A stretch of 63,975 bases of DNA, the filler included, from an uncultured Methanosarcinales archaeon (GTDB lineage: Archaea > Nanobdellota > Nanobdellia > Woesearchaeales > CAYSVS01): NCBI GenBank assembly GCA_964434475.1. It is 21 parts of 21 records of this genome, joined end to end, with 100 filler letters (N's around TTAATTAATTAA, not from the genome) between each part and the next. Parts side by side here need not be neighbours in the genome. Positions count along the whole stretch, not along the records: positions 38,060 to 40,735 come from CAYSVS010000099.1; positions 40,836 to 43,504 come from CAYSVS010000100.1; 19 more parts are not named here. One strand, 5' to 3'. Positions within the stretch are counted from its first letter, which is position 1, and each line of letters starts with the position of its first letter. Positions 39,001 through 42,000 of this stretch are shown here, piece by piece. A program made the position numbers.

Positions 39001-42000
39001 ATGTGTGTTGATGAAAACGAGCTGTTCATCGATAATTCTGATATCAAAGAAAATACAGTTATTGGCAGCGGGGGCGGCATTCGTGGACTTGCAGATGTAG
39101 AGATTCACATTGCGGGATCTACGTTTCAAGGCAATACAGCAACACAAAATGGCGGTGCAATTTATGGAGCATTGGAAGGTCTGGAAATCAATGTCTCTCA
39201 ATTTTACGCCAACACAGCTGGCGATCATGGCGGTGCACTCAGTTTCCTCTCCATCGCACCGGTCATTATTCACAATAGTGAGTTTAAAGACAATACAGCC
39301 GGCAAAAATGGCGGAGCCTGTAATCTCGATTCATATACCACGATAGAAATCTTTTCAACAAATTTTGTTGACAATACCGCGGCAGAAAACGGAGGTGGCT
39401 GCTTTTTCAAAGACACCTATGAACACATTCATGTCGCAGGGAGTGTCTACTTTGGCAATACGGCTGAACGCGGCGCTGGTCTTTATAATGAATGCGACAG
39501 TCTGATCCTGGAAACCGTCCAGCTTGGCGAAAATACAGCCCTTATTGCCGGCGGCGGCATTTACAATTCGTACGAGGGCGGCGACATTACTGGATGGGAT
39601 TGCGCACTCGCCGGCAATTCCGCGGCACAATTTGGCGGCGCAATTTATAACGGATTTGAAAGCGGTTACAGCACGGGGATACCAACCACCTATGGTGGAT
39701 TTCTACACTTGAAAGAGTGTGAGATTTCCGCCAATACAACCGCCGGCACTGGAGCAGGCATCCAAAATACCGAGTATACCACATTGGACTCTTGTAACAT
39801 CCATGCCAATACTGCCGATACATTTGGCGGCGGTGTGTACAATCACGGTGAAGAAGCACTTGTCACCGCCAAGCATACATCATTTTCGTTAAACACAGCA
39901 GAGAATGGTGGTGGTATTTACAATAAAAAATATCTTGACCTGAATCAATGTACGATTGACGCCAATTCCGTAACCGGGGATGGAGGCGGTATTTACAGTC
40001 TGACGCTGGAAGACGAATGCCACATCTCCAACTCGACATTCTATAACAATCTAACCTCGAATAATGGCGGCGGCTTGTGGACAGGCGGCGCTCCGGCAAG
40101 CTGGATGGAAGTGATCAATTGTACATTCGTGGAAAATCGAGCATTGTCAGGCGGTGCTTCAATTTACAATTCGGATTACGGTTTGACGCTAGTAAATACG
40201 ATTATGAGTGATGCTTTGGTCGGAGCCGAATATGCAGGGACATCCCCAACAACCGCTGTTGCCAATATGGTTAAAGATGGATCGCTGACTGGTGCTGTGA
40301 TGGCTGATCCCTTGCTCATGCCGTTTAATAATTATGGCGGGTTGACCAAAACCTGCCCGCTAAACGATACCAGTCCGGCCATTGATGCGGGCGATAATTC
40401 GTATGTGACAATTTCAAAAGATCAAAGCTGTAATCCCCGCATTCATAATGGAACTGTCGATTTAGGCGCCAATGAATATCAGGGAGCTATTACCTCTATC
40501 GAGAGCGAAAAATTGCCCACGGAATTTGCCCTTTACACCAACTATCCAAACCCATTCAATCCTAAAACGGCGATCAAATTTGATTTACCCAAATCTGAAT
40601 GGGTGACCTTGAAGATTTACGATGTTTTGGGTCGTGAAATTGGGATTCTCGTTGATGAACTCAAAACAGCAGGATTCCACACCATCACCTGGGATGCAAC
40701 CCGACAAGCAAGCGGGGTTTATTTTTACGAGCTTTNNNNNNNNNNNNNNNNNNNNNNNNNNNNNNNNNNNNNNNNNNNNTTAATTAATTAANNNNNNNNN
40801 NNNNNNNNNNNNNNNNNNNNNNNNNNNNNNNNNNNGCAATTTAGTATTCAGTATACATATTTATTCTTTTCCGGATGAACCCCTAAACTGGGGTTCATCC
40901 GGAATAAGGTTCAAATAATATTCTAAATATGAGATTAATCATTCTTACCATATTAAAAAGTATAATTGACCATCCAAATTCTCTCTTTTTAGTATGAGGC
41001 AATTTGCTTCTTAATTGTGGTTTCATAGTTTTTAATGCGTGCATAACACTTTCAACAGTATTCCTTCTGGAATACTGTTCATTTCCTTTAACACATCTTT
41101 TTCTGTTTGTTCCTTTTGGAATTTTTCGCATATTTCTAACTGGTGCAAAAAGTATATTCCCTAAACTTTTTGCTAATTTATGTAATTTTTCAGAGTCGTA
41201 TCCTTTATCTGCTAAAACTAAAATATTCTTCCAAATCATTCTTTTAAATATTGTTGTGGCACCCAAAACATCATGTCTGGGTTTTACTCTTAAAACCCAA
41301 TCATGTATTAATAAAGTATCGGCATCAATTAAAATATCAGCCTTTGCGTAAGGCATATGCTCCTCTATAAAACCACACTGTTTTATTCTTCGTTCATAAT
41401 GTCTACTTCGTTGCCATGAATCAATTCCTGTGGCATCAATCGCCATTATTTTAGGTGTTTCTTTTTGTATTTGTTTATGTAGAAATTTTCTAATGACTGA
41501 AAGGTCAAACAATTTAATCCAATCATTTAAAGTGCTTTTCCCTGGAATTTCTTTTAATCCTAACCACTTAGGCCATTTTGTTTCTTTCAATTCTACTAAA
41601 AAATTAATTAATGATTTTTTACTACGAATATATAGGAGAATTAGTGAAACTCGCTGATAATTCTTAAAAAACTTAGGACCTTTGTGATTATAGTTTAATG
41701 GAAGCTCCATTAAATGACAAAGTTTAATAATATCCTTATGTAACTTATTTTCTTGTATACTGAGTATATTTTGCATGGCTGAACACCTCGCAATTTAGTA
41801 TTCAGTATACATATTTATTCTTTTCCGGATGAACCCTTATAACCACAAACTTTAAATAGTAAACAATCTATTTTTAACTAATATATAATTAAAAACGAGG
41901 GGATAAATAATGAGGGAAAGATTTACTGTACTATCTTTGATGTTATTCATTTTGTTCTGCTCTGCTGCATTTGCTGAGCCTACTATACTAGAAGATAAAA

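Follow-up and report, generated by a model that had tools for sequence, protein, structure and literature searches.

Insertion sequences of several families abut the upstream edge of putative core promoters in an uncultured DPANN-type archaeon

In the genome of an uncultured Methanosarcinales archaeon (GCA_964434475.1; here G000), insertion sequences (IS) of families C, D and E, and in part of family A, lie with their target-site duplication directly against the upstream (BRE) edge of an outward-facing archaeal promoter motif. This observation of promoter-edge insertion, first made in a survey of the genome, is confirmed here and extended to other genomes. As to its cause, we lean toward active target choice keyed to the promoter, probably in the form bound by TBP and TFB. 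The window referred to below is the whole stretch of DNA that was analysed, 63,975 nucleotides with filler, in which parts of 21 records are joined end to end.

RESULTS

Insertion sequences and target-site duplications in G000

G000 is archaeal, with 148 contigs and 1.5 Mb, about 86% of it coding by our own gene calls. Five inverted-repeat IS families (A to E) interrupt the assembly with some 72 insertions, as the survey had found, and a recount of the IS ends gave 147, that is, the 145 listed before plus the two ends of a free family D contig (C143). Being a short-read metagenome bin, the assembly has nearly all of these ends, bar a few, at contig ends. Matching flanks in G000 gave duplications of 15 bp for family C (14 pairs), exactly 8 bp for family D (7 flank pairs), 8 bp for family E (5-6 pairs) and 7-10 bp for family A (13 pairs); family B showed no duplication of at least 8 bp in the same matching. 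The gene caller and the finder of inverted repeats and duplications were home-made heuristics.

A complete family E copy beside a promoter motif

The arrangement is seen in full on contig C100 (CAYSVS010000100.1), which occupies 40836-43504 of the window. Its features are as follows.

40836..40882, + strand: final 47 nt of the right end of E (E2), present a second time at the contig start; direct repeat of 41790-41836, identical in sequence
40883..40890: 8-bp spacer CTAAACTG between the adjoining E2 and E1 ends; flank pairs C50_L/C64_L and C50_L/C100_L
40891..41836, - strand: complete family E element (946 bp), its inverted repeats spanning 40891-40904 and 41823-41836
40895..41776, - strand: E transposase ORF, 293 aa, IS5-like DDE enzyme (Pfam DDE_Tnp_1, E 1.3e-10)
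41837..41844: target-site duplication TTATAACC, 8 bp; the second copy occupies the final 8 bp of C61 ahead of an E1 end
41845..41858, + strand: putative archaeal core promoter, directed away from the IS; BRE ACAAAC at 41845-41850, TATA box TTTAAATA at 41851-41858
41910..43412, + strand: downstream gene, 500 aa, hydrophobic N-terminus; ATG 59 nt downstream of the first TATA-box T
43453..43504: C2 end of family C, closing the contig on its right side, 40 nt past the stop codon of the 500-aa gene

The coordinates of the full copy (40891-41836), of its duplication (41837-41844) and of the adjoining promoter (from 41845) were thus obtained again as the survey had described them. Both tips of the element read GGGTTCATCCGGAA, and the promoter has a matrix score of 14.8 with its BRE edge at offset 8. 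A Pfam search of the 500-aa gene gave no family above cut-off. The spacer CTAAACTG at the contig start is identical to the target duplication of the other E insertion (C50_L with C64_L), and a Logan unitig (record 2, 52 nt, depth 5.9) covers the junction of E2, spacer and E1, spanning 40861-40912; these adjoining ends would reflect either a circle or a tandem copy. In depth, the body of IS E stands at 70.3 against 11.4 for the unique gene. The C100 junctions were reproduced in a separate k=31 assembly of what is probably the source run; among the source-run contigs aligned to C100, of a kind that drops rare variants, no joint skipping IS E was present.

Promoter motifs lie at a fixed offset from IS ends

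The training set of the BRE/TATA matrix, which was built independently, consisted of 738 upstream regions lying 200 nt or more from any contig end, so it contains none of the tested flanks. The core promoter motif of G000, [C/A][A/G]AAA-NN-TTTAWAWA, lies at a fixed distance from gene starts, with the TATA start at -29 to -34 from the ATG in 184 of 325 matrix sites, and the genome encodes both TBP (on C16) and TFB (on C28). Promoters throughout are read from sequence. We counted an outward promoter at the expected offset with a score of at least 4, and more strictly at least 8, against a null density of 0.0030 per position and strand in intergenic DNA.

At the lower threshold such a promoter is present at 18/20 C1 ends, 9/16 D ends, 8/15 E ends and, over offsets 7-10, 11/33 A ends; the survey, with its own matrix, had 18/20, 8/16, 8/15 and 8/33. 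Family B stays off the rule, as it did before: 1/43 of its ends carry a match over ten offsets, compared with the earlier 0/43. With scores of at least 8 the counts are 14/20 for C1, 5/16 for D, 8/15 for E, 7/33 for A and 0/43 for B. Binomial P values against the intergenic density, for the lower threshold, are 2e-38 (C1), 2e-19 (D), 1e-14 (E) and 1e-13 (A). Among paired insertions, a promoter is found on at least one side in 11/12 (C), 7/7 (D), 6/6 (E) and 8/13 (A); in the remaining 5/13 A pairs, about a third, the motif is absent. When the offset was left unconstrained, the best matrix match fell at 16 in 18/20 C1 ends and at 8 in most D and E matches.

The arrangement is asymmetric. Family C is orientation-specific, with the promoter at 18/20 C1 but 1/18 C2 ends, and at the targets generally the BRE/TATA motif on one side is the only conserved feature, the duplication and the far side carrying no information. 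In family A the BRE edge lies at offset 7, 8 or 10, tracking duplications of 7, 8 or 10 bp; all eight A pairs that abut a promoter (8/8) fit an offset equal to the duplication length. The promoter-side cut is fixed, the far cut variable.

The abutted motifs behave as promoters would. A called gene starts within 110 nt after the TATA box in 33 of the 46 abutting matches, and many do so at about 30 nt, like the genome-wide peak. Genes downstream include those for aEF-1alpha, AlaRS, AspRS, ribosomal L10e/L16, SMC and H+-PPase; with such genes behind them, these promoters must still work. The targeted promoters outscore typical ones (median 12.2 versus 10.3; Mann-Whitney p 0.003), and weak matrix matches (4.3-7.4) are also used at the exact offset when they lie at promoter distance from a gene. 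Five abutting matches were flagged as lying inside genes, and we read these as artefacts of the caller: three starts called too far upstream and two antisense ORFs (102 and 70 aa).

Could the pattern have been produced by assembly breaks, by a circular promoter model, or by mistaking part of the element for flank? The position of almost all IS ends at the contig ends of a short-read bin, and the absence of the A, B and C interiors from the assembly, invite the question. However, the matrix contains no sequence within 200 nt of contig ends, flanks vary between copies except for the motif, exact 8- and 15-bp duplications pair the flanks, the k=31 assembly reproduces the C100 junctions, and internal, fully assembled copies, in the window and in other genomes, share the arrangement. 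We therefore give an artefact next to no credence.

Selection as a source of the offset

Only fixed insertions are visible in consensus assemblies, so that selection has acted on all of them. Random or AT-biased insertion followed by loss of harmful copies would leave survivors that spare genes and promoters, and would gather them upstream of promoters. The high coding share of the genome, the essential genes downstream (where promoter-destroying insertions would be lost) and the two sites at which the upstream gene ends within the duplication all agree with such filtering. Selection of this kind, however, yields a one-sided bound and not a single position. The far IS boundary and the closest called gene lie between -17 and 601 bp apart (32 insertions), and because the median is 90 bp, selection cannot alone set a single-base offset; yet 18/20 C1 ends share one. 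Nor would it explain why the offset tracks duplication length in family A, or why the identical offset recurs in many genomes. Family B, in the same genome, ends elsewhere: 13/43 of its ends touch an open frame of at least 100 codons in reconstructed empty sites, which is a rough test, as downstream frames often stay open through the promoter, and which indicates that the genome tolerates other insertion positions. Selection alone thus explains the exact offset poorly, and we consider it highly unlikely as the whole account, although it surely filters what is visible.

Recurrence in other genomes and metagenomes

Elsewhere, E-, D- and A-like elements that inserted independently show the same abutment. 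Among E-like IS from other members of the order, a match scoring 8.6-16.2 stands at offset 8-9 in 10 of the 14 copies that could be resolved, among them every copy with an exact duplication (6/6). Six further E-like copies with abutment came from Woesearchaeota, Pacearchaeota and Nanoarchaeota records; they were retrieved with a 3-row alignment (A2), an 11-row alignment (A1) being too diverse, and a search with the single E protein as query found no relatives. IS66-like relatives of D abut a promoter in 5/16 cases and A-like ends in metagenomes in 11/37. Across the external sets, 4 to 9 resolved copies lack the motif.

For family C, one C1-like end in G002 has a TATA box at the same distance. 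The 28-nt tip of the family was absent from 150 other genomes of the order and from metagenome contigs, and in 400 genomes a 15-nt tip was found only in G000 and G002, apart from one chance match inside a gene (L194). A and B tips were not found in G001 or G002. In G001 the orthologue of the C100 gene is 48% identical at the protein level and the last C61 gene lies outside the 3.3 kb examined, and no empty site could be aligned.

The trait is not general. One IS66 subgroup breaks the rule (0/4; L136, L138, L139 and L140), and the E-like IS in one Nitrososphaeraceae genome shows no abutment (0/15). With family B, these exceptions indicate that the trait belongs to particular elements or hosts.

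Identity of the transposases

IS66-family elements usually make 8-bp duplications and have terminal inverted repeats starting with GTA, and both are seen in family D, whose tips both read GTATGTGCATAGC. Its transposase (contig C143, L006) passes the IS66 DDE model NF033517 with 251 bits (cut-off 180) and scores 135.5 bits with Pfam DDE_Tnp_IS66, so we assign D to the IS66 family by homology. Canonical IS66 elements carry accessory tnpA/tnpB ORFs upstream of the transposase; these were not found in D, a 1550-bp element with one 435-aa ORF and a next longest frame of 75 aa, in which it resembles the single-ORF subgroup of IS66.

The E transposase appears IS5-like. Its best IS5 equivalog match (NF033579, 89.9 bits) is below the cut-off of 140, so that the curated equivalog model does not place it, and Pfam DDE_Tnp_1 gives 41.8 against a threshold of 23. 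The interior of A is absent from the assembly and the family was judged from its close relatives L178 and L182, the first of which has an inner end nearly identical to the A1 end of G000. By their scores with the IS701 equivalog NF033540 (122.7 and 135.5 bits, below the cut-off of 150), A would be IS701-like. IS701 elements make 4-bp duplications, unlike the 7-10 bp of A; the likeness of D to IS66, of E (8-9 bp duplications) to IS5 and of A to IS701 consists in transposase homology and terminal inverted repeats.

The survey had called the transposases unrelated. That description is borne out in part: D is IS66, above its cut-off, beside the IS5-like E and the IS701-like A, which share the DDE_Tnp_1 fold and fall below their equivalog cut-offs. 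It does not reach C and B, whose interiors are missing from the assembly.

DISCUSSION

What is read at the target, bare DNA or an occupied promoter? Each transposase might recognize the naked BRE/TATA sequence or its shape (an A-tract followed by a flexible TATA step) beside the cleavage site, so that no host factor would be necessary. DDE elements such as IS903 are known for target preferences set by flanking sequence, and BRE/TATA is the sole conserved target feature here. The above-average scores of the targeted promoters are also predicted by such direct reading, and the exemption of B, of one IS66 subgroup and of the Nitrososphaeraceae E-like IS looks like a trait encoded by the transposase. 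On the other hand, at least three transposase families, and C, would each need the same asymmetric 14-bp motif and the same cut position, with one target side devoid of information, whereas DDE preferences are usually palindromic. The exact use of weak matches at promoter distance from a gene also speaks against it, as does the finding that 262 of 877 matches scoring at least 8 lie inside called genes, compared with the 5 flagged among 46 abutting ones, a comparison confounded by selection. We regard direct reading of naked DNA as rather unlikely. The survey's suggestion, guidance by the promoter complex or by DNA shape, fits the one-sided conserved feature and the fixed promoter-side cut with 7-15 bp duplications, and we likewise infer it from these.

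In the mechanism that we envision, the upstream edge of the BRE/TATA core promoter would be the landmark for target choice by the E, D, A and C lineages of this DPANN-type archaeon and its relatives. Of the two staggered strand transfers, one lies upstream of the TATA box, 6 bp (A, D, E) or 7 bp (C) from its first T, at about -36/-37 from the start of mostly leaderless genes, and the second cut is a further 7 to 15 bp upstream. The duplication therefore touches the BRE, and the core promoter is left intact, still serving its gene. The positions, their asymmetry and their recurrence in other genomes are observed; that the motifs are active promoters, that target choice and not selection sets the offset, and that bound factors and not naked DNA are read is inferred. 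The guide would most likely be the TBP/TFB-occupied promoter, serving the transposition complex as a boundary or a tether, or alternatively through the distortion that these factors impose on the DNA leaving the BRE. A generic TBP/TFB roadblock should affect every transposase, and the three exempt groups speak against it. For the element, the gain would be a place to insert safely when about 86% of the genome is coding. A complex prediction that paired the E transposase alignment with the core of TFB (residues 100-303 of L157:904-1815) scored 0.00, and was weighed neither way.

Some eukaryotic retroelements are textbook cases of targeting guided by the transcription machinery; for prokaryotic insertion sequences we are aware of no such description. 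TFIIIB contains TBP and Brf1, a relative of TFB/TFIIB, and the contact with Brf1/TBP is used by Ty3. This LTR retrotransposon of budding yeast is reported to integrate at RNA polymerase III start sites via TFIIIB (10.1101/2021.07.27.453949, PMC8632968, PMC6673722, PMC6101501). Ty3 resembles the present case in its constant position, no more than a few bases from the edge of a TBP/TFIIB-type complex, in leaving the gene intact and in finding a safe site in a gene-dense genome; it differs in being a retroelement with a retroviral-type integrase that uses the downstream (start-site) edge of TFIIIB. The archaeal elements are DDE insertion sequences at the upstream (BRE) edge of ordinary protein-gene promoters, and contact with TBP/TFB is hypothetical in their case. 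The single-base register with the edge of an initiation-factor site that marks Ty3/TFIIIB-type targeting was found in G000 and in other genomes.

Two further precedents concern prokaryotic insertion sequences. One is an IS reported to keep a single orientation and a constant, short spacing relative to a host protein's binding site (PMC10132070). Spacing and orientation are as in family C, but that case involves one IS family with a recombination site for its landmark, whereas here the landmark is a promoter, shared by at least four families. The target of IS5 in E. coli is 4 bp. IS5 (and IS1) are reported to insert upstream of the E. coli promoters of bgl, fucAO, glpFK and flhDC, at stress-destabilised DNA (SIDD) (PMC5493358, PMC11043490, PMC11894529). 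As with the IS5-like family E, the element lands upstream of promoters, there under the influence of DNA structure and DNA-binding proteins; in contrast, those cases are few loci, found by selecting for gene activation, and show neither a single-base core-promoter register nor several families. In the literature searched, we found no description of promoter-edge targeting by IS66, IS5 (8-9 bp duplications) or IS701 families, and no published report of transcription-machinery-guided target choice by archaeal insertion sequences.

One can therefore ask how far the parallel extends. We propose, tentatively, that TBP-TFB on BRE/TATA may be a shared landing pad adopted independently by at least four DPANN IS lineages, with one strand transfer at the upstream face of TFB; we find this plausible and stop short of favouring it. 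If true, it would be a prokaryotic counterpart of Ty3 at TFIIIB, and factor-guided "safe harbour" transposition would be older than, or parallel to, the eukaryotic systems. In uncultured archaea the elements could then act as natural markers of promoters, precise to one base, and promoter-proximal insertion tools could be built on them. More generally, if the occupied promoter is read, DDE transposition would be tied to the TBP/TFB complex in a way open to direct test, promoters of uncultured DPANN archaea could be marked from sequence alone, and it would be explained how a 1.5-Mb, largely coding genome holds about 72 IS copies, some directly upstream of aEF-1alpha, tRNA synthetase and ribosomal protein genes. 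Even if naked DNA is read, several families would have converged on one and the same base next to the BRE, and target specificity of that kind would be new.

Family B seems to use a different kind of target. By eye, its flanks show a T at -4 together with an A at -1, suggestive of a 4-bp TNNA target.

Of the tRNA genes called with aragorn, one tRNA-Leu adjoins a family A end.

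An IS copy beside a predicted promoter on contig C100

The survey's finding was that IS elements of several families insert at the upstream edge of promoters, family B excepted. Its site is contig C100, where it had correctly placed a full family E copy, the duplication and the promoter.

Features of contig C100 (window positions)
40836-43504, contig C100
40836-40912, abutted E ends at the contig start: E right end, 8 bp CTAAACTG, E left end
40891-41836, full IS E copy, 946 bp, with 14-bp perfect terminal inverted repeats
within this copy, minus strand, E transposase, 293 aa, DDE
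41837-41844, target duplication TTATAACC, directly after IS E
41845-41858, promoter-like motif ACAAAC + TTTAAATA, directly after the duplication
41910, start of the downstream gene, 500 aa
43453-43504, family C end, 40 nt past the stop of the 500-aa gene

The 8 bp TTATAACC also closes contig C61, where it is joined to the opposite E end; given its presence on both flanks, it is a genuine target duplication, with the promoter-like motif immediately beside the target. Because E adjoins its promoter and a family C end follows its stop, the 500-aa gene is bracketed by two different IS. Its ATG, with GAGGGG upstream, lies 59 nt after the TATA box, an exception to leaderless spacing.

At the abutted E ends, the spacer CTAAACTG is identical to the duplication of another E insertion (C50_L/C64_L), and a k=31 unitig from the likely source run crosses the junction at a depth of 5.9, against 11.4 in the unique gene and 70.3 across the body of the IS. 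The junction resembles that of an IS circle or of a tandem copy that part of the population carries; the E element would then be active.

Five IS families

Clustering of contig ends in the bin under study (G000) defined five families, with duplications found from matching flanks.

IS families in G000
Family A, 33 ends, duplication 7-10 bp, 13 pairs
Family B, 43 ends, no duplication of at least 8 bp
Family C, 38 ends (C1 20, C2 18), duplication 15 bp, 14 pairs
Family D, 16 ends plus the free 1550-bp contig C143, duplication 8 bp, 7 pairs
Family E, 15 ends, duplication 8 bp

No further internal or diverged copies of these families were found in the G000 assembly, which therefore lacks the interiors of A, B and C. 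Family D is classified as an IS66-family element and E as IS5-like, the latter with a score under the curated cut-off. Full A-like copies were recovered from metagenomes by tip search; their transposases (391-393 aa) are classed as IS701-like, again under the cut-off. Tip searches of other genomes and metagenome contigs did not recover the interior of C. By eye, the flanks of the 43 B ends have T at -4 in 41 and A at -1, which suggests a 4-bp TNNA target and an ordinary sequence-based choice, unlike the other families.

Some ends are nested or oddly placed. At the right end of contig C47, a B1 end breaks into an E copy within its transposase gene, and at that of C82 the 7 nt with which the family A tip begins, CTGGAGT, stand immediately before a C1 end. 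The A tip also contains TGTGCAGATTT, similar to the C1 tip TGTACGATTT. At the left end of C59, a (GATA)n microsatellite with 9 or more units adjoins a C2 end.

Predicted promoters lie at a fixed offset from many IS ends

Genes were called with a simple longest-ORF rule (1358 genes, 86% coding), and a 20-column matrix was refined from a TTTAWATA seed on 738 upstream regions with spacers of at least 50 bp, none of them within 200 nt of a contig end. The matrix settled on [C/A][A/G]AAA-NN-TTTAWAWA, with the first T of TATA at -29 to -34 from ATG in 184 of 325 matrix sites, and is the signature of putative BRE/TATA promoters of mostly leaderless genes. Genome-wide, most genes that have a spacer show TATA starting at -30/-31 from ATG, and leaderless transcripts are therefore probably the majority. 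Background density per intergenic position and strand was 0.0030 at a score of at least 4 and 0.0015 at a score of at least 8.

Flanks were then scanned outward without constraint, and the best match gave the offset from the IS boundary to the BRE edge. This was 16 in 18 of 20 C1 ends (the 15-bp duplication plus one base), 8 in most D and E matches, and 7, 8 or 10 in A.

Ends with a motif at the expected offset, score at least 4
C1, 18/20, binomial P 2e-38
C2, 1/18
D, 9/16, binomial P 2e-19
E, 8/15, binomial P 1e-14
A (expected offsets), 11/33, binomial P 1e-13
B (over ten offsets), 1/43

The promoter-edge observation is thus reproduced with a matrix trained away from contig ends, and so is the exception of family B; that all this is an artefact we find scarcely credible. 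An insertion has two ends and a promoter on one side, so the fractions per paired insertion are higher (C 11/12, D 7/7, E 6/6, A 8/13); the motif is also present at most unpaired ends of C1, D and E. In family A, the duplication length, determined separately from matching flanks, is the same as the offset (7, 8 or 10 bp), indicating that the promoter-side cut is constant and the far cut variable. One A insertion is not at a promoter, since its A2 end follows a tRNA-Leu gene, 13 nt past the 3′ end (C15:50-148).

For 33 of the 46 abutting matches, a called gene points away and starts within 110 nt after TATA, often at about 30 nt. Five fall "inside" a called gene; three of these reflect a start placed too far upstream by the caller, and the other two are short antisense ORFs. 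Of the 32 downstream proteins scanned, 22 have a Pfam name; among the genes are those for aEF-1alpha, alanyl- and aspartyl-tRNA synthetases, ribosomal protein L10e/L16, SMC, H+-pyrophosphatase, SAH hydrolase and SepF. A genome that is 97% complete has to express such genes, and hence the predicted core promoter is evidently preserved when an IS abuts it upstream.

Target choice

Could selection alone, sparing genes and promoters among the survivors of insertion, leave this pattern? We think this very improbable. Damage avoidance excludes places but cannot fix insertions to one base. Beyond the far boundary of the paired insertions that abut a promoter (32), the nearest called gene is at -17 to 601 bp (median, 90 bp), and aligned targets have no information in the duplication or upstream, only the one-sided BRE/TATA being conserved. 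In the same genome, B lands elsewhere, and long open frames touch 13 of its 43 ends.

The fixed cut at the BRE edge, the 7- to 15-bp duplications and the asymmetric landmark instead suggest that the transposition complex may be positioned against something occupying BRE/TATA. TFB contacts the BRE on its upstream side, which would make TBP-TFB the obvious candidate. The strict orientation of family C (C1 18/20 versus C2 1/18) points to an asymmetric contact. We lean toward such factor-guided target choice; sequence lends a promoter-guided target, as the survey proposed, all the support that sequence can give.

Direct reading of naked DNA by the transposases is the main rival. The trait is element specific, as this would predict, and targeted promoters somewhat outscore the genome's promoters (median 12.2 versus 10.3, p 0.003), although higher factor occupancy would fit this too. 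Against the rival, several families converge on one base and the targets show no palindromic signal, and we regard it as possible but doubtful.

Recurrence in other genomes

The recurrence of abutment outside G000 is a new part of the analysis. Since related genomes are not independent and the boundary finder is heuristic, the following counts are descriptive. Of 301 genomes in the order, 33 (G000 among them) have a relative of the E transposase. Among 29 E-like loci fetched from the order, a script resolved the inverted-repeat pair in 14; ten of these, including all six copies with an exact 7- to 9-bp duplication, have their best outward match (8.6-16.2) with the BRE edge at offset 8-9. Three others match at 11, 11 and 15, with doubtful boundaries, and one has no match. 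Public species genomes gave 80 E-like loci, almost only with archaeal titles, and six new cases (L051, L054, L058, L060, L096 and L118; L052 and L020 are one record); of nine copies with an exact 8- to 9-bp duplication, four have the motif and five lack it.

For IS66-like elements, 16 of 24 loci were resolved, and five have a match of at least 8 at offset 8-9 (L129, L132, L133, L137 and L147); the remainder includes one match at offset 6 and one weak match, and the motif is present in 0 of 4 of a subgroup with tips GTATTTGTTTAGC. A-like ends in metagenomes have the motif at offsets 7-10 in 11 of 37 matches, about 8 of the 37 being, by eye, chance matches in unrelated G+C-rich DNA. In the congeneric genome G002, one C1-like end has TATA at the same distance as in G000.

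A 948-bp E-like IS in a long-read Nitrososphaeraceae genome has a motif match in 0 of 15 copies (L070-L080, L090, L092, L108 and L112; 8-9 bp duplications). Their flanks often start ATA/TAT on both sides, which hints at a palindromic target preference and not promoter targeting. The abutment trait is real, spans many genera, and is bound to particular IS lineages or hosts.

Comparison with known systems

Among the known systems compared, Ty3 at TFIIIB in yeast is functionally the closest; the nearest prokaryotic IS are the IS1202 family, which sits next to the XerC site of dif (PMC10132070), and IS5, which inserts upstream of a few E. coli promoters where the DNA is destabilised. A full-text search of articles found no report of IS insertion at archaeal BRE/TATA edges, and by term search a 2026 archaeal IS survey (PMC13343696) lacks the terms promoter, TATA, intergenic and target site. 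We rate the finding as a putative new variant of factor- or landmark-guided transposition.

The organism and its bin

The window is made up of small contigs from a single metagenome bin (148 contigs, 1.50 Mb, about 33% G+C, completeness 97%, contamination 0.85%). From archaeal TBP (contig C16), TFB (C28) and 16S rRNA (C8) genes, and from closest E-transposase relatives in records titled Woesearchaeota, Pacearchaeota and Nanoarchaeota, we infer a DPANN archaeon. About 20 small contigs with 42-72% G+C (e.g., C94, C99, C105, C119 and C120) look like foreign DNA in the bin; none bears an IS end. C99 (window 38060-40735, 45% G+C) encodes a 909-aa repeat protein whose C-terminal stretch presumably resembles a bacterial sorting domain.
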